Shown here one piece after another: positions 1,715 through 21,957 of a DNA stretch of 46,402 bases. The notes under the pieces were generated by a model. The model made no database searches, was not told the origin of the DNA, and worked only from the letters and a program-made list of their open reading frames with translations. The position numbers were made by a program, and so were the translations under genes. Source of the stretch: a virus (lineage: Duplodnaviria > Caudoviricetes); IMG/VR virus record IMGVR_UViG_3300033487_000013, positions 1 through 46,402 of that record. One strand, written 5' to 3'. Positions within the stretch are counted from its first letter, which is position 1. Every line of letters begins with the position of its first letter.

Positions 1715-2980
1715 ATGAATCAATATCCAATAATAACTAGCGTAGGAATAGAAATTGAAATTGAAAATGTTAGTGTTCATAAATTAGGAAATAGAAATTT
1801 AATTTCTGATAATATTCAATTTCATTTAACTCATGATGCTAGTTGTGAAACTAATAAAAGAGTTTTAAATGGATTAGAAGTAGAATATGATGATGATTTA
1901 TCCTATTTAATGAATATGATGTTAAGAAAAGAAACTTTTGGAGGTGAATTAGTTTCTTCAGTAATAGATACCGAAAATAATTATTTAGGAGATTTAAAGA
2001 AAATAACAAAAACTCTTTTAGATTTAGGCGAAGAACCAAAATCTTTTAGAGCGGGTTTTCATATTCATATTTGTTTACCAATTAGTTTAGCAATCCTAAA
2101 AAATACAATGAGATTAGCAAGGCATTTAGAACAAGTTTTTTATTTATTAGGTACTGCTGGTTATGAATTTAGAGGAATTAAAAATGATTCAATTTATTGT
2201 CGTCCAATAACTAAAAAAGGCCCGGTTGTAGTTCCATTAAGTAAAGGATTTGCACAGGTATTTAATATCACAGATTTATTAAAATCTAATTCTGTAATTG
2301 AATTTAAAGATAGATACGGAGATTTAGATCAATTAATGACTAGATATATTCCAGTAAGATATCATTTTATTAATCTTGTTCCTTTATGGACACAAGGAAG
2401 TGTAGAATTTAGAGTATTTAATAAAACAACTAATCCATTTATTATGAAAGCATGGATAGATTTTTGTAAAGGAGTTGTTGAATATATTGTTTCTACATCA
2501 TTTAATGATTTAAAAGATGAAGGATTTTTAAAAGAAAATTCAGTTTTTGATGTTGATTTTGATTCTAGGGAATATATTATTGAAACATATAAAGCTTTTA
2601 CTACTAAAATTAAATTGGATGAAAGATCGGATGAAATTTTATTAGATATTTTAGAAAGAGGAGATTTAAGTTCTATTGCATTACCAAATGAATTTGTTTA
2701 TTCTCATTTAGGTGAAAGATCTATGATTCATTGGAGAAATAGTACGTATAAACCAGAATTAATAAAAGAATTTATTAAGAATCCAACATTTGTTGATGTT
2801 CATATTTTAGATAGAACAAATCAAACTTTACAAAGAAGAATAGGAAGGGAAGGAAATGAAAATATAGATATAACAAGATTAAATCCTGATTGGTTTACTT
2901 TATCAACAAATACTGATGAAATTAATGATCAAGAAGATGATGATGAAGAAATTTTTAATTCAGAAGAAGAAGAAGAATAA
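1715..2980 (+). CDS. Putative amidoligase (Amidoligase_2, COOH-NH2 ligase fold)
   Basis: Motifs GIEIEIE, HDAS, ELVS, GFHIHI, RYHFINL and VEFRVF in the expected order; acidic C-terminal tail. Confidence 0.85.
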   Translation: MNQYPIITSVGIEIEIENVSVHKLGNRNLISDNIQFHLTHDASCETNKRVLNGLEVEYDDDLSYLMNMMLRKETFGGELVSSVIDTENNYLGDLKKITKTLLDLGEEPKSFRAGFHIHICLPISLAILKNTMRLARHLEQVFYLLGTAGYEFRGIKNDSIYCRPITKKGPVVVPLSKGFAQVFNITDLLKSNSVIEFKDRYGDLDQLMTRYIPVRYHFINLVPLWTQGSVEFRVFNKTTNPFIMKAWIDFCKGVVEYIVSTSFNDLKDEGFLKENSVFDVDFDSREYIIETYKAFTTKIKLDERSDEILLDILERGDLSSIALPNEFVYSHLGERSMIHWRNSTYKPELIKEFIKNPTFVDVHILDRTNQTLQRRIGREGNENIDITRLNPDWFTLSTNTDEINDQEDDDEEIFNSEEEEE

Positions 2981-2992
2981 AGGAAAAATAAA

Positions 2993-3880
2993 ATGTATAA
3001 TTTAACTTTTGGAGCAGATCCCGAAGTATTTGCCACTATTAATTTAAATGGAGAATATGAAGTTATTTCTCCAGCTCTATTAAATAAATTTAGTGGCATG
3101 GAATTTATTACAAAAGATTACAAACATCCTACATTTATAGAAGAAAAAGATTTTATTTGGATGATGGATGGAGTAGCAACAGAATTAACATTAAATAAAC
3201 CATATCAAGATCCATTTTTAATGAAAAACGATTTACTTAACAGTTTAGATTCATTGCAAGAATTCTTATCTAAATTATCTTTTGAAGGAAATGATCTTCA
3301 CTTATATAAAAAACCAGTAGTAAAAATTAATCCAGAAAGATATTTACCTTATTTAGAAGATGAGTTAATTTATCAAGGATTTATTTTTGGTTGTGATCCT
3401 GATAAAGATGCTATTTTACCTGATTATAGATGTCAAACATTTAAAGTAAAAGATCATAAATTAAGATATGGAGGAGGACATATTCATTTAGGATCAAATG
3501 ATTTAGAAATTAGAAAAGCAATTAAAGAAAATGTACATAGATTAGTACATTTAATGGCAATTGGAGTAGGAAATTTATGTATTTCTACTTCTGTATTTCC
3601 TGAAGAAGATAAATTAAGAGTATTTCATTATGGAAAACCAGGAAGATTTAGAGATGATAAAGAATATGGAATAGAATATAGGACACCAAGTAATAGTTGG
3701 TTAAGTAATTTAGATATCTTACCTCAAATATTTGAAACATGTAATAAATGTATTTATTATTTACTACGTGAAAAAGAAGGATTGGAGAAAACAATTCAAT
3801 TATTGCCTAAAACTATAGAATCTATTACTACTGCCAATCAAGATTTAGCTGAAAATTTATATAAGGAATTTATGGAGTAA
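2993..3880 (+). CDS. phiEco32-like COOH-NH2 ligase type 2
   Basis: GADPEVF, DGVATE, GCDPD, RYGGGHIHLG, YGKPGRFR, YGIEYRTPSNSW. Confidence 0.9.
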   Translation: MYNLTFGADPEVFATINLNGEYEVISPALLNKFSGMEFITKDYKHPTFIEEKDFIWMMDGVATELTLNKPYQDPFLMKNDLLNSLDSLQEFLSKLSFEGNDLHLYKKPVVKINPERYLPYLEDELIYQGFIFGCDPDKDAILPDYRCQTFKVKDHKLRYGGGHIHLGSNDLEIRKAIKENVHRLVHLMAIGVGNLCISTSVFPEEDKLRVFHYGKPGRFRDDKEYGIEYRTPSNSWLSNLDILPQIFETCNKCIYYLLREKEGLEKTIQLLPKTIESITTANQDLAENLYKEFME

Positions 3881-3887
3881 ATTTAAG

Positions 3888-4931
3888 ATGGATATAACTT
3901 TTGACTATCAAACAATTTCAGATAATAATTCTCTTTTTACCGCATTGCTTTTTGAGGGAGATTTATTTTTACACCTGCCATATACATTTTATTTATATAA
4001 TGCAGATAATATAGCAATCGTAGAAAAAATAGGAAAAGAATATAAGTTTAAATTAACAACTTTAATACAAACAAGTAGAGATAATATTCTAAAAGAAAAA
4101 GATACTTTTATAAATAATTTAGAATCTTATTCTGATGCAACTAAATTTTTACTTGATTTGAACAGGAAACTTGTAATTTCTTATTATAAAAAAGATGGGA
4201 GTTATTTATATCATCCTAATTTATTTAGTAAAATTCCTCCAACAGAAAAAACTGGTTCTTTTATTCTTAGAAGTGAACAAGATAATAAACTATATAAAAT
4301 ATATAAAAGGACTTCTTGGAATTTAGTAGTTTATATGGCAAAGTGTATAAAAGAATATCAATTAGATTGTTCTAATATTATCAAAAGGGTAAATGAAAAT
4401 TCGATAAGTCTTATTTTACAAATGCTTGCTAAGAAACATTCATTCTTTATTTGTAAATCAGACGTTGATAATTTTTATTATACAACCCTTGTAAAAATGT
4501 TACAATCTCCTTATATGAAAGAAAAATCTATAGCACCTTTTCCTTATTTAGAGGAGAAAAGTTTAGAAAAATTAAATAAAACAATACAAAAAAGTCTATT
4601 TAAACTGGAATCAACAAACGAGAAAGAAGATATAATAGAAGGAAAAGAAAAGATTTATCTTTCAAAAGTATTGAAAAATGGATTAGATCCTCATTGGAGA
4701 TTTGAAAAAGTACAAATTGATATTAATGTAGGAAAAGATATAGAAGAAATGTGGGTAAGTAATTCATCATTATATGTTTATATTTCTACAGGAATTCTAG
4801 ATGTAAAAAATTATGAGGAAAATTATGATTTGTATTTGGCAGATTTAAAGAAAAGATTGAATTTTGAAAAAGTAACGTTAATTGAATCAAATGATGATCC
4901 TGATGTAGATACTTTAGCATTATTAATGTAG
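3888..4931 (+). CDS. Hypothetical protein inside the ligase cluster
   Basis: 347-aa ORF, tight spacing, no recognised motif. Confidence 0.7.
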   Translation: MDITFDYQTISDNNSLFTALLFEGDLFLHLPYTFYLYNADNIAIVEKIGKEYKFKLTTLIQTSRDNILKEKDTFINNLESYSDATKFLLDLNRKLVISYYKKDGSYLYHPNLFSKIPPTEKTGSFILRSEQDNKLYKIYKRTSWNLVVYMAKCIKEYQLDCSNIIKRVNENSISLILQMLAKKHSFFICKSDVDNFYYTTLVKMLQSPYMKEKSIAPFPYLEEKSLEKLNKTIQKSLFKLESTNEKEDIIEGKEKIYLSKVLKNGLDPHWRFEKVQIDINVGKDIEEMWVSNSSLYVYISTGILDVKNYEENYDLYLADLKKRLNFEKVTLIESNDDPDVDTLALLM

Positions 4932-4943
4932 GAGAAAATTAAA

Positions 4944-5678
4944 ATGGAAGTGAATTTTTATTACACTCGATCAAAAGAATTTCCATATAGAAGTTCTTTT
5001 ATACAAGCAATTAATTCTAATGAGAATATAGTAGAAACTGTAAGTGTAGAACAAACTATAATATCAATTTTAAATGGAGATATAGATGCCAATCATATTT
5101 TTTGTAATGCATTTTCAAATTTTTGTAGGGAATTACTTTTAGAAGATGCTAAAAAATGCTTTTCCTTATTAGTTAATTACAATTTTTTTAGAATGGCTTA
5201 TGCGAAATTTCCTTTTTCACTTAATCATCAAGTTTATGGTATATTTCGTCCAGAAGAAAATTTAATTAATCTTAGAAATTTAAAAAATATTGCCGATATC
5301 TCAATGATATTTTTCCTTCATAAACATTTAAGAACGTTTACTGATGAAAAAGACATTGTACGAGTAATTTTAGAAAATAGTTATGAATGTTTTTCTCATC
5401 CATTGCAAAAAGCTTTAACTGCTTACTATTATTTTACTAGATATAAATATCCAGAACTTATTAAAATATGTCGTTTAGATAATATAGATGGGCCGACTAC
5501 TTATATGGAAGATGATTTGTTTTTAGATAGAAAAACAGGTAAAATAGGAAATATAACCTTTTTAGAATTTTGTGTTCGTTATAAAAAAGAATTAACTCCA
5601 ATCCTTAAGCAAGAGTTTAAATTATATTATAAAATAGATACTTATAATGCAATGTTAGAAACTATAAGAGGTGTCTAA
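4944..5678 (+). CDS. Hypothetical protein inside the ligase cluster
   Basis: 244-aa ORF with GGAG RBS. Confidence 0.7.
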   Translation: MEVNFYYTRSKEFPYRSSFIQAINSNENIVETVSVEQTIISILNGDIDANHIFCNAFSNFCRELLLEDAKKCFSLLVNYNFFRMAYAKFPFSLNHQVYGIFRPEENLINLRNLKNIADISMIFFLHKHLRTFTDEKDIVRVILENSYECFSHPLQKALTAYYYFTRYKYPELIKICRLDNIDGPTTYMEDDLFLDRKTGKIGNITFLEFCVRYKKELTPILKQEFKLYYKIDTYNAMLETIRGV

Positions 5679-6038
5679 ATGTTAAGGCACACTAAATGCG
5701 GAGAAATGGTCGTTATAAATTTAAATGAATTAATTTCTTTAGATGGAATTGGAATTATAGGATCTGATTTAAACATTGTAATTGGCAAAATATATTTCAA
5801 AACTAATAAAAAGAAATCAACTAAGGTTAATTTTGTATGTCAACATTGTAAAACAGAAAATCTTTCTCTAGAAGAAATTTATGATAGTTGTAATAATTGC
5901 AGTAGAAATAATATCTTAAGTTCTTTATTTATTCCACTTGAAAGTGGAGGACTTTTTTGTGACAAATGTATAGTTAAATTCTTTAAAGAAGAAAAAACAA
6001 TAAATGTTACTGAAATAAACGGAGTAACAATTCCTTAA
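5679..6038 (+). CDS. Zinc-finger protein
   Basis: HTKC, CQHC, CNNC and CDKC pairs. Confidence 0.7.
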   Translation: MLRHTKCGEMVVINLNELISLDGIGIIGSDLNIVIGKIYFKTNKKKSTKVNFVCQHCKTENLSLEEIYDSCNNCSRNNILSSLFIPLESGGLFCDKCIVKFFKEEKTINVTEINGVTIP

Positions 6039-6047
6039 GGAGATTAT

Positions 6048-7208
6048 ATGTGCGAATTAACTTTTATCAATTTACATAATAAAAATATGAATTCGATAGA
6101 GCTAATCACTCAATTAATTACAAATTCTTTTCTAGATAATAAAGACGGGTTTGGATTTTTCTCTCAAAATACTGGAATTTTTAAATTAGAAAAAAATCTA
6201 AGAGAAATAGAAATTGGGCCAATTGTTAGAAATTTTATAAAAGATGATTTACCTATTTTAGCACATATTAGATCTGCATCTTTAACTGATGGGAAAAAAG
6301 AAGTTAAACAAGAATTTAATCATCCTTTTGAATCAAAGCATTTTATTTTTGCTCACAATGGTACTTTAGAATTTAAAGATAAATTTCTTCAAGAAAAAAA
6401 TAAAGAGAATTTAGATTCATTAAATTTCCTAAATAGAATGGAAGAAATCTTATCAACAAAGAAAAGAAACTTTCCAATAGAAGAATTGTTAGTAGAAACA
6501 ATGAAAGAATTTACTGGAAAATTTGCTTTTCTTATTTTCGATAAAAGAGATAAAAAATATTATGCGGCAAGAGGAAAATTAGCTAAATTAGCTTTAGCTT
6601 TATTTTCTTGGGAAGAACTTCCTATTGGCTATATTATAAATACATCTCAATTAGATTTAGATAAAAATTTAGATTATTTTGAGGTTGTTACATCTTTATA
6701 TGGAGAAGGTAAATATGATTTTATTAAATTCTCAGAATTAAAAGAAGAATCCATTTTTAGACTTGACGATTTAGAGGTTGTAAATATCGGTGAAATTAAA
6801 GAAAATACAAAAGAATATGTTGGAGTAAGAGTTCCTTATAATCGTGTTAATAGAAGTTATTATGATATTTATGATGAAGAAGATGATGGTGATTTAAACT
6901 CTTTTTTTACTGACAAGTATAATTCACCTTTAGACATATCAGAATTAAATTATCTAGCTAATGTAATCTTTAAAACACCATTGATTTATTTATCTGATAT
7001 TGAATTGGATGATGTATTAACTGTGGTAAAAGAATTAGAGCGTAGTAATTCTAATCTAAAAGCAAAACTTTGGAGATTAATCTTAAAATATAGTAACATT
7101 AGTTCCTTAGAAGTTTATAAGACATATCCATTTATAAATTTTCCTTACATGTTAAATGAAACTTCGGATTTAAGAGAGTTAGCTAATTTACTAAGGAAAA
7201 AAGTATAA
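6048..7208 (+). CDS. Class II (Ntn) glutamine amidotransferase domain protein
   Basis: N-terminal nucleophile M-C, DGFG, HIRSAS, NHPF, HNGT, DS, GKFAF. Confidence 0.88.
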   Translation: MCELTFINLHNKNMNSIELITQLITNSFLDNKDGFGFFSQNTGIFKLEKNLREIEIGPIVRNFIKDDLPILAHIRSASLTDGKKEVKQEFNHPFESKHFIFAHNGTLEFKDKFLQEKNKENLDSLNFLNRMEEILSTKKRNFPIEELLVETMKEFTGKFAFLIFDKRDKKYYAARGKLAKLALALFSWEELPIGYIINTSQLDLDKNLDYFEVVTSLYGEGKYDFIKFSELKEESIFRLDDLEVVNIGEIKENTKEYVGVRVPYNRVNRSYYDIYDEEDDGDLNSFFTDKYNSPLDISELNYLANVIFKTPLIYLSDIELDDVLTVVKELERSNSNLKAKLWRLILKYSNISSLEVYKTYPFINFPYMLNETSDLRELANLLRKKV

Positions 7209-7939
7209 TGTATATATTAACTAAAAGATTTTTATTTCCGTCTGCCAGGATTTTAAGGGATTCATTACAAGAAATTACAAAGGAAAAAATACTAATAACA
7301 ATTGATCCAACTAAAGTAAAACAACCTTTTATTAGATTTGGTAATTCAGATCTATTACCATTTGAAACTCAATATAATTCTGCTAATTTTGTTAAATTTT
7401 GTACAAATAAATTAAATTTTTCTAAAGTAATGAAAGAAAATAATATTCCTTCTCCAGTTTATAATAAAAATAAACCAGAAGAATATCCAATCTTAATCAG
7501 ACAAACTTTATTTGGATCTAGAGGAAAAGGAATTGTTTTAGTAAAAGATGAAAATACTTTTCAAGATATTTGGAACATGAGTTATTTTTGGACACCATTC
7601 TATAAAATTGATTTTGAATTAAGAGTACACATTCTTGGAGGTAAAATAGCAAAGATATTCAAAAAAGAATTGGAAGAAGATTCTGAATATCCCATAAGAA
7701 ATAATGAATTCTGTCACTTTGCAGTTAAAGATTCTATTAAATTTCCAAAGCTATTTCCTTTTGTAGACACTCTTATTCAAGTTCCAGAAATAAATTGTGG
7801 TAAATTTTATTCTTTAGATGTAGGATGGGATAGTTATAATAAAAATTATTTTGTATTTGAAATGAATTCTGCATCAGGATTAAATGAAAACACTTCTAAA
7901 TTATATGCTGAATATCTAGCTAAAGAAATGGAGTTATAA
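7208..7939 (+). CDS. ATP-grasp ligase (phage RimK-like)
   Basis: NK, GSRGKGI, ELRVHI, LDVGW, FEMNSASGL (ExN motif). Confidence 0.85.
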   Translation: MYILTKRFLFPSARILRDSLQEITKEKILITIDPTKVKQPFIRFGNSDLLPFETQYNSANFVKFCTNKLNFSKVMKENNIPSPVYNKNKPEEYPILIRQTLFGSRGKGIVLVKDENTFQDIWNMSYFWTPFYKIDFELRVHILGGKIAKIFKKELEEDSEYPIRNNEFCHFAVKDSIKFPKLFPFVDTLIQVPEINCGKFYSLDVGWDSYNKNYFVFEMNSASGLNENTSKLYAEYLAKEMEL

Positions 7940-7940
7940 A

Positions 7941-8144
7941 ATGTATGAAGTAATTGAAATAAAATCTAGAGATTTTATAAGTAAACTATTTTCTAAATTA
8001 ATTAGAATTGAGTTTCAAGTAATAAATGATAAACTTCATGGAAAAGTTACTACAATTGGTATTGATATTTGGAAATTTTGGTTATATATTTGGATTAAAG
8101 ATGGTAGTAGTCCAGAAATAGAGCTTTTCTTTAATGCAGAGTAA
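7941..8144 (+). CDS. Hypothetical protein
   Basis: GGAG RBS, in operon. Confidence 0.5.
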   Translation: MYEVIEIKSRDFISKLFSKLIRIEFQVINDKLHGKVTTIGIDIWKFWLYIWIKDGSSPEIELFFNAE

Positions 8145-8183
8145 TATAAACTATAGTTTATTAGTATAAAAAAGGATTAGAAT

Positions 8184-9005
8184 ATGACAGCACAATTAGT
8201 AAAGAGATATTTAGATAAATATTTTATAGGACAGGAGTTAATTAAACAAGAACTAAGTATTTTATTACAAGCAATGGTTAATGGATATAATTTTTCTATT
8301 TTATTTAGAGGAGGATCTGGTTCTGGAAAAACTTATTTATCAGAAGTTTGTGTAAATTATCTATTAATTAAAGCGCATGAAGATTTTTCTTATTATTTAA
8401 TGGATACAGATAATTTTAGATTAACAGATAAAAGGATACATATCTTAGATGAAGTACATAAATTTAAAGACCAAGAATTAATTTATCCTTATTTAGATAG
8501 TGGAAAGTATACAGTTTTTATATGTACCAATGAATATGATGAATTAAAAGATCCATTAATTAGAAGGTGTATAAATTTCACATTCGAATCTTATTCGATT
8601 GAAGAATTAATGCAAATGGCACAAAAATATTTTATGAAAAGAAGGGTAGAATTAAAAACTTCTTATTTAGAAATAATAGTTTCATCTTCCAGATTTAGTC
8701 CGGCAAGTGTTTTAATGTTAAGTAAAAGATTATTTTACATCTTTAAACAAGAAGGAATTCCAACTAATGAATTAAAATTATTAGAATTAATTTCAAAGTA
8801 TTTTAAAATTGAGGAAGGATTATCCGAAGTTGATAGAGAATATTTATCTTTTCTAAAAAGAAATGGAATGGCTGGATTAAATACTTTAAGTGTAATCTTA
8901 GGAATTCCAAAGAAAATAATTACAGACGAAATTGAACCATTTTTAATCAAAAGGAATTTAATTAGAATTACCCCAAGAGGAAGGATTTTATATGAGTCTA
9001 CTTAA
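8184..9005 (+). CDS. ruvB: RuvB-like Holliday junction branch-migration AAA+ ATPase
   Basis: Walker A GGSGSGKT, Walker B ILDEVH, PLIRR; RuvB C-terminal signature GL..DREYL...GL.TL...LG...DEIEPFLI...ITPRGR. Confidence 0.8.
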   Translation: MTAQLVKRYLDKYFIGQELIKQELSILLQAMVNGYNFSILFRGGSGSGKTYLSEVCVNYLLIKAHEDFSYYLMDTDNFRLTDKRIHILDEVHKFKDQELIYPYLDSGKYTVFICTNEYDELKDPLIRRCINFTFESYSIEELMQMAQKYFMKRRVELKTSYLEIIVSSSRFSPASVLMLSKRLFYIFKQEGIPTNELKLLELISKYFKIEEGLSEVDREYLSFLKRNGMAGLNTLSVILGIPKKIITDEIEPFLIKRNLIRITPRGRILYEST

Positions 9006-9642
9006 TTTGTTTCATAAAGATAATAATCTTTTAGAGGATATAGCAATTGCTACTTATCCATTTATGAATTCTTTTAGAGATGTTTTTGATCAACAAATTA
9101 ATATAATTGGACATCCAAATTTCTTTAATGAAAATGCATTTAAGCTTGCTAAACTAATTATATTTAGTGGAGGAGAAGATATTAATCCTGCTATTTATGG
9201 AAAGAAAAATACACATTCTCATTTCAGTCTATTAAGAGATCAAGTTGAATTAGAAGTATTAGAAAGAAGTCTAAAAGAAAATAAAAAGATATTCGGAGTT
9301 TGTAGAGGACACCAATTAATAAATGCATTTTTAGGTGGAGATTTAATTCAAGATTTATTCCTTGATTTAAAAATCGACCACGAATCATATCATCCATTAG
9401 AAATAGAAAATGAAAATTATTTGACTCCAAAATTCTTTGATTCAGTTAATTCTATGCATCATCAAGGAGTAATAAAAGAAGGAAAAAATCTAATTCCAAC
9501 AAGTTTTTATAAAGGAATAATTGAATCTTGTGAATCTGAAAATATAATTACTGTTCAATTTCATCCTGAATTTATGGGAAGACAAAGTAAAGAATTTTTT
9601 TCCTATTTAAAGAATTGGAAGGATAAAGGAAAGGAAAACTAA
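8992..9642 (+). CDS. Peptidase C26 / gamma-glutamyl-gamma-aminobutyrate hydrolase family (class I GATase)
   Basis: SGGEDINP, RD..E, GVCRGHQLIN..GG, VNSMHHQ, VQFHPE (Cys-His-Glu triad). Confidence 0.92.
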   Translation: MSLLNLFHKDNNLLEDIAIATYPFMNSFRDVFDQQINIIGHPNFFNENAFKLAKLIIFSGGEDINPAIYGKKNTHSHFSLLRDQVELEVLERSLKENKKIFGVCRGHQLINAFLGGDLIQDLFLDLKIDHESYHPLEIENENYLTPKFFDSVNSMHHQGVIKEGKNLIPTSFYKGIIESCESENIITVQFHPEFMGRQSKEFFSYLKNWKDKGKEN

Positions 9643-11490: not shown

Positions 11491-11835
11491 ATGTATAAAT
11501 TACTGACAATTAAAGATATTACAGAAATAGAGTTTGATAAAGAACCTGATGAAGTATTTATTACATTTAAACAAGGCGGAGAATGGGATGACTTTGTTGT
11601 TTTTACTAATATTTATACTTCTCTTATTAAATTATTAACACAAGCTAGATTTGTTGTTAAAATTCCTGACGGAAAAGAATTAAATATTTATTTAGATACT
11701 TCACAAATAAAGGAAGATATTTATTATTTAGCCTTTCCAGATCAATATTTAAGTTATAGCAAAGAAATTATAGAATATTTTCCTACTGTAGTTCAAATAA
11801 GAAAAATAAAAATGAATGGGAAATTTCAACTATGA
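11491..11835 (+). CDS. Hypothetical protein
   Basis: GGAG RBS; overlaps the ligase start. Confidence 0.6.
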   Translation: MYKLLTIKDITEIEFDKEPDEVFITFKQGGEWDDFVVFTNIYTSLIKLLTQARFVVKIPDGKELNIYLDTSQIKEDIYYLAFPDQYLSYSKEIIEYFPTVVQIRKIKMNGKFQL

Positions 11836-12722
11836 TTAAATATATGCACATAGAAAGATTAAATACAGACGATGTTGAAGGAATTTTAAATGGTACTATT
11901 TATATTCAACCTAAAATAGATGGTACTAATGGACAAGTTTATTTTGAAAATCCAACTATTCAATGTGCAAGTAGAAAACTTTTATTAGATGCTAATAATA
12001 CAAATCAAGGATTTTATAATTATGTTGTAGAAAATTCTGGAATGTTTATGGCTTATTTTCTAAAACATCCTTACCATATTTTATATGGAGAATGGTTAGT
12101 ACCACATACTTTAAAAACTTATAGAAAAGATGCTTGGAGAAAATTTTATATATTTGATGTATTTGATTCTTATTCCGGAATGTATTTAAATTATGATAAA
12201 TATTATTTAGAATTACAAGAATTTAATCTTCCTTTTGTTCCTGTAATTGGTAAACTTTATAATGCTAAAGAAGAAGATTTAATTAAATATTTAGAAAATA
12301 ATAAATTCTTAATAGAAGATGGTAAAGGATCTGGAGAAGGAATTGTAATAAAAAATTATGAATTTGTTAATAAATATGGTAGAGTTACTTGGGCTAAATT
12401 AGTTAGGAATGAATTTAAAGAGGATCATATTAAAACAATGGGATATCCAGAAGAACAATTAAAACCTATTGAATTATCTATTGCAGAAACGTTTGTAACA
12501 GAAGGTAGATTAAATAAAATCAAAGCTAAAATATTAACTGAAAAAGAAACTGGTTGGAATAGTAAATATATTCCAGAATATTTAGGAAGAATTTGGAATG
12601 AAATAGTTACAGAAGAAATGTGGAATATTTTAAAAGAATTTAAAAATCCTATAATTAACTTCAAGAATTTAAATAGATTTATTATTCATGTAACTAAAGA
12701 AATAGATAAAGAGGTTTTCTAA
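11832..12722 (+). CDS. RNA ligase, Rnl2-like nucleotidyltransferase
   Basis: Motif I KIDGTN, ASR, LYGEW, FYIFDV, EGIVIK, WAK. Confidence 0.85.
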   Translation: MIKYMHIERLNTDDVEGILNGTIYIQPKIDGTNGQVYFENPTIQCASRKLLLDANNTNQGFYNYVVENSGMFMAYFLKHPYHILYGEWLVPHTLKTYRKDAWRKFYIFDVFDSYSGMYLNYDKYYLELQEFNLPFVPVIGKLYNAKEEDLIKYLENNKFLIEDGKGSGEGIVIKNYEFVNKYGRVTWAKLVRNEFKEDHIKTMGYPEEQLKPIELSIAETFVTEGRLNKIKAKILTEKETGWNSKYIPEYLGRIWNEIVTEEMWNILKEFKNPIINFKNLNRFIIHVTKEIDKEVF

Positions 12723-13899: not shown

Positions 13900-13920
13900 A
13901 ATAATTTCTTAAATAAGAAT

Positions 13921-13952
13921 AAAAATACCCCTCAATCGAGGGGTATTTTTTT
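13921..13952. terminator. Bidirectional rho-independent terminator
   Basis: AAAAATACCCCTC-AATC-GAGGGGTATTTTTTT, with A/T tracts on both sides, at the convergence of the + and - blocks. Confidence 0.92.
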
Positions 13953-13990
13953 GCCTTGTGATTCGTAATTTATTAAATAACTCCAGGTAA

Positions 13991-21049: not shown

Positions 21050-21244
21050 TTATGGAAAGAATGAAAATAAAGAAACCGCTCCGATAAATAATAACATTAT
21101 AATTCCAGCTAAGAGAAATAGATTTCCAGTTTTACCTGTATTTGGATTTCCTGTTACACTACATTCAATTAATTTACTAACGCCTATAAGACCACAAGCA
21201 ACTCCTAGAAATATTCCAATAACTAATAAAGAATAAATAAACAT
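21050..21244 (-). CDS. Small two-TM membrane protein
   Basis: Start moved to MFIYS, after AAAGGAGGAATAAA; the longer track ORF runs into the tRNA. Confidence 0.6.
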   Translation of the reverse strand: MFIYSLLVIGIFLGVACGLIGVSKLIECSVTGNPNTGKTGNLFLLAGIIMLLFIGAVSLFSFFP

Positions 21245-21273: not shown

Positions 21274-21349
21274 CACCTTCGGAGAGACTCGAACTCTCAT
21301 GATCCAATTACCCTTTCTTCACGTTAGAACCGTGAGGGGATACGAAGGT
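21274..21349 (-). tRNA. Non-canonical tRNA-Arg(UCU)-like RNA lacking a conventional D-arm
   Basis: Acceptor ACCTTCG/CGAAGGT plus discriminator G; anticodon arm TCACG-GTTCTAA-CGTGA; T-arm GAGAG-TTCGAGT-CTCTC; 7-nt linker instead of a D-arm; 20-nt variable region; no encoded CCA. Confidence 0.8.
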
Positions 21350-21364
21350 ATGCGACAAGTATTT

Positions 21365-21466
21365 TCATGGGTTTCTCTTCAACATCAATGCCACTTGTGC
21401 CAAGATCAATCCAGCCGCTATCAATAGTAGTCCTACAATTACCATCGTTGCAGATTCAGGGATCAT
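21365..21466 (-). CDS. 33-aa single-TM peptide (not in ORF track)
   Basis: [33 protein letters not shown]; ATGA overlap with the LPXTG gene; GGAGGGAG upstream. Confidence 0.5.
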
Positions 21467-21957
21467 CTCTCCCTCCATACGTATCTGTATACATTAAGTA
21501 CAAGAATAATTGCCAAACACACCAATGCACCAGTAAAAAGCAACCTGAGATCATCGTCTATGCCCGTCTGTGGCAACATCGGTATCGGCGTGGGCTTAGA
21601 TGGCTTATCCTGCGTTGCCGTTATTGTGGGCGTGTAGGTTGCAGGGGTAGGTGTCAGCGTCTGCTCAGGTACAGTCGCCGTCATAGTTGGGGTATCCGGT
21701 GGTGGCGTTTCTCCTGGCGTATCGCTTGGCTGTGGTGTATCCGTAATCTGCGGTGTGTCTGTCAGTTGTGGTGTATCCGTAGGGACTGGTGTATCAGTCG
21801 GAAAAGGTGTATCTGTAAGGAACGGTGTTTCCGTAGGCGGCAATGGAGTTTCACTTGGCTGTGGTGTGTCCGTTGGTGGGCATACTACTTCCGCCTTTGC
21901 TATACCAACCCATATCCCTGCAATTGCCAAGACGATAACGATTATAAACAGTCTCAT
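21463..21957 (-). CDS. Secreted Pro/Thr-repeat surface protein with LPXTG sorting signal
   Basis: Signal peptide ending AKA; TDTP/ETP repeats; LPQTG, then a hydrophobic TM, then RYVWRER. Confidence 0.88.
21690..21880 (-). repeat. Imperfect 18-bp tandem repeat encoding (P/L/I)-T-D-T-P-x
   Basis: Repeated GGTGTATC/GGTGTGTC cores on the + strand; about 9-10 peptide units; boundaries approximate. Confidence 0.75.

Follow-up and report, generated by a model that had tools for sequence, protein, structure and literature searches.

A probable phage tRNA-Arg(UCU) with a re-routed backbone, and the family of genes with swapped middle blocks to which it belongs

Can a gene that carries the acceptor, anticodon, and T stems of an arginine tRNA, with no D hairpin in the usual place, still give rise to a working tRNA? 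The locus that raises this question lies in a whole virus record (46,402 bases, hereafter the window), which encodes a terminase large subunit, DNA polymerase A, RecA, DnaB, primase, ribonucleotide reductase, and IMPDH, together with an RNA ligase family protein at 11832-12722. An earlier note, made from the letters alone, had read the locus as a rearranged tRNA-Arg(UCU) in which D-loop sequence has moved to the 3' side of the anticodon arm, and had expected standard finders to miss it. The gene is on the strand of its neighbours and sits alone in a gap of ~120 nt between these co-directional genes, flanked by a short ORF that ends near 21365 and an ORF that begins at 21244. ARAGORN found no canonical tRNAs elsewhere in the 46 kb, and its default run returned 0 tRNAs for the whole window; the gene stayed uncalled at thresholds down to 85% and in mitochondrial mode, and Rfam gave no match there at E ≤ 1. 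Both finders that were tried thus miss it, as had been expected. The note had also taken AGA to be the dominant arginine codon of this phage, and the codon counts agree, with 388 of the 523 arginine codons (74%) in the 54 ORFs counted. A promoter scan gave 11 sites against 9.1 +/- 3.2 by chance, and no terminator was found when the setting of the gene was scanned.

Several other features of the window were recorded in passing. A hairpin with T-runs at 13920-13953, placed between convergent gene blocks and giving weak Rfam matches, is likely a terminator. At 1715-9642 on the plus strand, phiEco32-type genes for amidoligase, COOH-NH2 ligase, and glutamine amidotransferase lie clustered, and genes like these also flank tRNAs of the kind described below in two other loci (L376 and L386). 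A Pro/Thr-repeat protein encoded at 21463-21957 (minus strand) has a signal-like N-terminus, an LPQTG motif, a hydrophobic stretch, and a basic tail; it had no Pfam or PHROG match, we take it to resemble a sortase substrate, and it may give a hint to the host group.

In standard tRNA numbering, the blocks of the window gene run 1-8, 21-46, 9-20, 48-73 (Table 1). The 3' strand of the D-stem still lies just 5' of the anticodon arm, while its 5' strand and the D-loop now lie 3' of that arm, and the relocated D-loop segment forms the junction strand that runs into the T arm. The resulting secondary structure is a three-way junction, at which the acceptor stem and the T arm meet a single long arm that combines D-stem and anticodon stem. 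The coordinates and sequence given in the earlier note are correct, as are its 7-nt linker, its D-loop motif within the 20-nt stretch between the anticodon and T arms, and its three fully paired stems (acceptor 7/7, anticodon 5/5, T 5/5, all Watson-Crick).

Table 1. Parts of the rewired tRNA gene in the window, with standard tRNA position numbers in brackets.
Feature	Coordinates	Strand	Remarks
Rewired tRNA-Arg(UCU) gene	21274..21349	minus	76 nt to discriminator G73; CCA not encoded
Acceptor stem, 5' strand (1-7)	21343..21349	minus	7/7 pairs
Linker, U8 joined straight to 21-26	21336..21342	minus
Canonical D-stem 3' strand (23-25), inside the linker	21339-21337	minus
Anticodon arm	21319..21335	minus	anticodon UCU at 21328-21326; odd G32 at 21330
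Connector, from variable-loop 44-46 to position 9	21314..21318	minus	3-12 nt across the family
Relocated D-stem 5' strand (10-13)	21310..21313	minus	10-12 pair with 25-23, on the basis of covariation
Relocated D-loop (A14, A15, G18, G19, A20 at 21303), short spacer, and U48 (21299)	21299..21309	minus
T arm	21282..21298	minus	5/5 pairs
Acceptor stem, 3' strand, and discriminator G73	21274..21281	minus

Set against a canonical tRNA, the gene departs from the cloverleaf order of acceptor, D hairpin, anticodon arm, variable loop, and T arm, and it carries G32 where a canonical tRNA has a pyrimidine. It has the 7-bp acceptor, the 5-bp anticodon stem, the 7-nt loop with U33, and the 5-bp T stem with a standard loop, and covariation supports the pairs 10-25, 11-24, 12-23, and 15-48. 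PMC5766645 names positions 8, 11, 14, 15, 18, 19, 21, 24, 48, 55, and 56 as important for the L shape, and all of these have counterparts in the window gene. Folding energy alone is not significant (z -1.34, with 21 of 200 shuffles folding equally well), and the single-sequence fold favours a slipped D-stem register (-22.7 vs -21.1 kcal/mol). A four-element descriptor of the arrangement had 0 matches in shuffled loci (3 shuffles of 535 kb), and a looser one had 2 matches in 200 shuffled windows.

An assembly artefact is unlikely, because the same gene stretch occurs identical and unbroken in contigs of runs X1, X2, and X4 (3 of 4 runs; they come from three studies, and the window itself may derive from any of them). 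Run X8, which is probably DNA, has it too, in a contig of 197 nt. The single RNA run (X13) gave no contig over the gene. In runs X1-X4, pieces at 21303-21343 also show a similar stretch from a second organism, with 6 differences followed by T-arm-like sequence, which is probably another family member.

To place the gene among relatives, we drew on seven scans of viral contigs (six pattern scans and one protein scan) and one of prokaryote genomes. The counts are samples and give lower bounds, as five of the viral pattern scans covered 10-29 of 64 parts. Matches were filtered with a descriptor that tests the acceptor, anticodon, and T stems and the D-loop motif and does not require the D-stem; it admits 7/5 acceptor/T stems only, and is silent on variants outside that. 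At least 243 distinct genes with swapped middle blocks were found in this way (138 + 63 + 42 new). The anticodons of the first 138 are mostly those of arginine (UCU 66, ACG 20, CCU 18, UCG 6, CCG 5, GCG 3), with the remainder being isoleucine UAU (12) and GAU (6), one valine, and one CAU; no amino acid class beyond Arg, Ile, CAU, and one Val anticodon appeared among the sampled genes. The CAU genes are likely lysidine-type Ile tRNAs, judging from known acceptor sequences. Mean pairwise identity over the fixed-length parts of the 138 genes is 59%. The window gene, itself part of the training set of the family model, scores 81.8 bits on it.

These numbers carry the imprint of the search. The scans demanded U13, A14, G18-G19, and a linker starting with TA or TATC, so that variants outside these could escape, and descriptor matches whose linker was not 7 nt starting with TA were dropped before the count of 138. 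The constancy of U8, A21, U13, A14, G18-G19, and much of the T-loop cannot count as evidence, since the scans selected for these positions. Six descriptor matches without the D-loop motif were left out, since they look like canonical tRNAs parsed out of register. Loci that matched the scan pattern and held no rewired gene numbered 35 of 120 and 21 of 119 in two later viral scans, and 7 of 28 in the prokaryote scan.

Some members and neighbours of the family vary from the general plan. A rewired Arg(ACG) gene (L387:9088-9176, minus strand) has an extra hairpin after the moved D-loop and ahead of position 48, a sign that this new junction may tolerate an arm. A rewired Arg(UCU) gene (L002:1480-1556, plus strand) has C33 in place of U33, and its array holds 37 canonical tRNAs, none of them Arg(UCU). 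A different kind of gene, a tRNA-Ile(UAU) of ~92 nt with a normal D arm and a long variable region, occurs at L125:1483-1574 (plus strand) and in 63 other loci; the variable region has a conserved AGAT loop and mostly ends in a D-loop-like motif, for which the scan pattern selected. These genes could belong to a class of tRNA-Ile with a long V-arm, although a literature search brought up no such class, or be a relative of the duplication intermediate considered below.

The homologues support the topology proposed in the earlier note through covariation in the D-stem, a helix that neither the scans nor the descriptor demanded. Watson-Crick pairs were found at 12-23 in all 243 genes (138/138, 63/63, and 42/42, the last covering one pair type only, since its scan pattern fixed C23), at 11-24 in 242 (138/138, 62/63 with one G-U, and 42/42), at 10-25 in 216 (117/138, 62/63, and 37/42), and at 15-48 in 229 (129/138, including 9 G-C, 60/63, and 40/42). 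All four pair types occur at both 11-24 and 12-23. None of 5000 shuffles matched the observed D-stem pair counts, shifted registers reached 0.70 at most, and in slid controls the pairing dropped from 96% to 38-48%. On a rough tree built without the D-stem columns (about 70 columns, used for rough counts of change and not for origin), both sides of the pairs change together in 24/24 and 38/38 cases, and RNAalifold, given 70 of the 138 genes as aligned by MAFFT without structural guidance, recovered the D-stem unaided. Eight more distinct genes that the descriptor had missed all retain 12-23 and 11-24, in a search whose model includes these pairs. Position 13-22 is mostly U-U (119/138), and 27-43 is often unpaired.

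These results change two details of the original reading. The statement that there is no D-arm holds for the hairpin, which is missing from its usual place, whereas the D-stem helix is kept and only the backbone order has changed. The linker had been thought to pair with GGG and/or GGA on the far side of the anticodon arm; covariation supports the GGG just before the moved D-loop, and we rejected the GGA of the D-loop, as the TCC that it needs is present in only 41 of 138 linkers and the linker covaries with 10-12.

Conserved pairing across the family leaves the state of this particular copy to be considered, as the family may work as tRNA while the window copy decays. G32 occurs in 1 of the 138 genes, namely this one (136 have a pyrimidine there), CCA is not encoded, as in 38 of the 138, and no tRNAs stand nearby. 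There may also be a gene remnant just upstream: a mini-ORF of 14 codons (21368-21324, minus strand) runs into the tRNA gene, and its first 19 nt match 14/19 with the start of a 186-aa gene in the related record L395, where that gene lies directly upstream of a canonical tRNA-Arg; this weak match is possibly a remnant. Against decay, every pair in the three main stems (17) and in the D-stem (3) is Watson-Crick, the gene has retained A20, C35, U36, and G73, and the stems are intact even though the closest relative among the 138 is only 71% identical over the fixed parts. We therefore regard decay as unlikely, while it is the foremost of the alternatives.

The marks by which synthetases recognise their tRNAs also follow the anticodon. 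The tRNA-Arg identity set consists of A20, C35, U/G36, and A/G73, and the window gene has it in full. In scans that left position 20 unconstrained, A20 was present in 95 of 96 Arg genes, in keeping with the earlier suggestion that A20 marks arginine identity, and U20 in 64/64 Ile, 7/7 CAU, and 1/1 Val genes; all 72 non-Arg genes have A73. A scan that forced an Arg anticodon together with a base other than A at position 20 yielded 1 rewired gene in 120 loci. PMC9976931 gives A20 as the main determinant for ArgRS, with A/G73 at the discriminator, and D20 plus the discriminator for IleRS, and the patterns at position 20 and A73 match these determinants; for position 36, it prints U/C36 and, for yeast, G36 or U36. 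The discriminator of the Arg members fits less well, being A/G73 in 71 of 96, U in 23, and C in 2, and the 25 members with U73 or C73 count against the match.

The rewired gene appears to stand in for its canonical counterpart. The test covered 116 de-duplicated loci with at least four canonical tRNAs, which are not whole genomes and, through shared descent, not independent. Of the 66 Arg cases, 1 also had a canonical gene of matching anticodon, where 13.7 were expected (Poisson P ~2e-5). Contrary to such exclusion, a canonical Ile(GAU) gene is present in 2 of 4 loci with Ile(GAU) members. A Leu gene in locus L401 that passed the filter in this test is a false match and lies outside the anticodons tested. 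One complete record of 207 kb (G002) has 23 canonical tRNAs, none of them Arg(UCU), plus a rewired UCU gene. In 123 of 125 cases the nearest canonical tRNA shares the strand of the rewired gene, and in 73 it is no more than 100 nt away; most relatives are inside tRNA arrays, while the window gene stands alone. The same replacement can be seen in L395, the sole relative of the window phage found via its primase (53%; IMPDH 60%). This 65-kb record has no rewired gene and carries a canonical tRNA-Arg(UCU) at L395:3569-3642, on the same strand and within the interval that the same two genes bound. The two phages have IMPDH, a kinase-like gene, and a small gene in common and in conserved order, and as the shared interval spans several kb in which other genes differ, this is synteny of the interval and not of the immediate neighbours.

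The distribution bears on a further possibility, namely that these RNAs are decoys or inhibitors that bind ArgRS or IleRS, or soak up host tRNA-cutting defence enzymes, and deliver no amino acid on the ribosome. Synthetase marks would be retained here too, host defences that cut tRNAs have been described as a force behind phage tRNAs (PMC10264068), and retron Eco2 cuts host tRNA-Arg (PMC12916289). Against this, the gene takes the place of a canonical gene of equal anticodon, and the anticodons include six Arg and three Ile-type variants, a spread like that of decoding sets, with full T and acceptor stems retained, so that we consider this somewhat less probable than decay. Less probable again is that the RNA is no adaptor but a tRNA-shaped mark, which tells RNase P or 3' trimming enzymes where to process phage messages. 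The top half of a tRNA suffices for these enzymes, and the lone position of the window gene between co-directional genes would suit such a role, but a mark of this kind has no need for A20/U20 and A73 linked to the anticodon or for a conserved anticodon arm, the exclusion of the matching canonical gene would not be expected, and most relatives lie within tRNA arrays.

Rewired genes are also present in cultured phages. One family member matched 278 cultured phage records, 198 of them over at least 80% of its length. Partial matches were also obtained in Streptomyces, Vibrio, and Mesorhizobium phages. In the cultured E. coli phage Felixounavirus AYO145A, the gene is unannotated and lies among 25 canonical tRNAs without Arg(UCU) in a 14-kb stretch; in 121Q, another cultured E. 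coli phage, it carries the label tRNA-Leu, and Rhodococcus phage Trina has it as tRNA-OTHER. BLASTN of the window gene itself against cultured phages returned T-arm pieces only, with 0 of 492 records covered to 80%. A search of 185,579 prokaryote genomes with the Arg pattern returned 28 loci, 21 of them with a rewired gene, and 16 of these lie beside at least four canonical tRNAs. In eight of the prokaryote loci, for which the larger ORFs were examined in part (41 proteins), one (L391) is clearly a prophage, four have phage-type metabolism genes, and the other three are ambiguous. With 21 loci in so many genomes and phage-type surroundings, the rewired tRNA is therefore not a housekeeping feature of cells.

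ARAGORN passes over most of these genes. Given alone in native order, 0 of the 138 were called by ARAGORN, and in their loci 5 of 136 overlap an ARAGORN call. When the two blocks were swapped back in silico, 137 of 138 became ARAGORN tRNAs with their own anticodon. Since 135 of 138 were also called with another gene's linker, and 82-123 with the breakpoint moved by 1-2 nt, this test is permissive and shows only that all tRNA parts are there. Maturation by cutting the transcript and rejoining its pieces in canonical order, which is known from circularly permuted tRNA genes, is very improbable: the phage does encode an RNA ligase family protein and the swapped-back genes are called, but the swap-back test is permissive, an internal swap should take three cuts and three joins rather than one circularisation, no splice-like flanks were seen, and the connectors vary in length as tolerated loops do.

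Taken together, the sequence comparisons indicate a genuine and widespread feature on which selection acts to preserve tRNA structure and synthetase identity. We believe, with a probability of about 0.75, that the window gene encodes a working phage tRNA-Arg(UCU) with a re-routed backbone in which the D-stem pairs are kept; the lone copy, G32, the lack of an encoded CCA, the slipped single-sequence fold, and pair 10-25 being broken in 21 of 138 genes speak against it. The RNA likely folds into the normal L shape, because the D-stem pairs are kept despite the block swap, and it is likely charged by the host arginyl-tRNA synthetase and likely decodes AGA, the main arginine codon of the phage. 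Three backbone links would differ from those of a canonical tRNA (8 to 21, ~46 to 9, and ~20 to 48), which would turn the four-way cloverleaf into a three-way junction. The nucleotides joined by the new links are expected to lie close to each other in the tRNA core. The D-stem would stack on the anticodon stem as usual, and the former D-loop would serve as the junction strand, still docking G18-G19 on the T-loop. The gene is most likely transcribed together with its neighbours as a polycistronic phage transcript, from which host enzymes would cut the tRNA and to which the host would add CCA; the RNA would then fold to the L by way of its conserved core, be charged by ArgRS, and be used at AGA codons.

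The arrangement probably arose when 9-46 was duplicated in tandem and complementary halves were then lost, and it may have spread among phages afterwards, with anticodon switches between Arg and Ile. Both neutral drift after duplication and deletion and escape from tRNA-directed defence are compatible with its being kept. A broader reading, which we put forward tentatively and think is rather less likely to be right than wrong, is that this three-way junction with its re-routed backbone is a second natural architecture of translating tRNA, which would have spread across phages of many hosts because recognition by synthetase and ribosome is kept while host defences that cut or modify tRNAs by reading the normal core are evaded.

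If these RNAs do translate, a bacterial-type tRNA can do without cloverleaf order, and another backbone path also leads to the L shape, which would bear on models of tRNA origin, on what core-modifying enzymes and nucleases read, and on the design of orthogonal tRNAs. Phage tRNA sets would also have been under-counted for decoders of AGA and AUA, and studies of codon compensation and anti-defence depend on such counts. As the family is present in cultured E. coli phages (AYO145A and 121Q), these ideas are directly testable.

In the openly accessible full-text literature, we found no description of a tRNA family with swapped blocks, and the accessible part of PMC7609411 does not mention phage, permuted, or rearranged tRNAs. 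DNAVirus_2961 of Fremin 2023 (PMC10690425) is a 56-nt element of Bifidobacterium phages that at times overlaps a tRNA-Arg call. The closest comparison is with canonical class I tRNA-Arg of bacteria and phages (RF00005), with which the rewired gene shares the 7-bp acceptor, the 5-bp anticodon and T stems, the D-stem pairs and 15-48, U8, G18-G19, A20, C35, and a length of 73-82 nt; it differs in that blocks 9-20 and 21-46 are swapped, that a three-way junction results, and that the D-loop is not closed by its own hairpin. Algae and archaea have circularly permuted tRNA genes, whose 5' and 3' halves are swapped and whose products mature to a normal cloverleaf. Parts are encoded out of order in both, but here the acceptor strands stand at the two ends in normal order, the 3' half is not upstream of the 5' half, and two internal blocks have changed places. 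D-armless mitochondrial tRNA-Ser(AGY) likewise has a short linker where the D hairpin would be (PMC9976931 and PMC7609411), whereas in the rewired tRNA the D-stem and D-loop are moved, not lost, and covary, the T-loop is standard, and the setting is bacterial. The allo-tRNAs and selC* tRNAs (Mukai 2017, as relayed in PMC7609411) are also non-canonical and metagenomic, with UAU and GCG anticodons common in both groups; the acceptor domains of allo-tRNAs are 8/4 or 9/3 and their identity is serine or alanine, in contrast to the 7/5 domain of the window gene and its family, which has no V-arm and identity marks that agree with the anticodon. The tRNA-like structures of the plant viruses TYMV and BMV also achieve synthetase recognition through another topology, but these are genome ends without a role in translation (PMC9976931), whereas the rewired tRNAs are free-standing genes in tRNA arrays.
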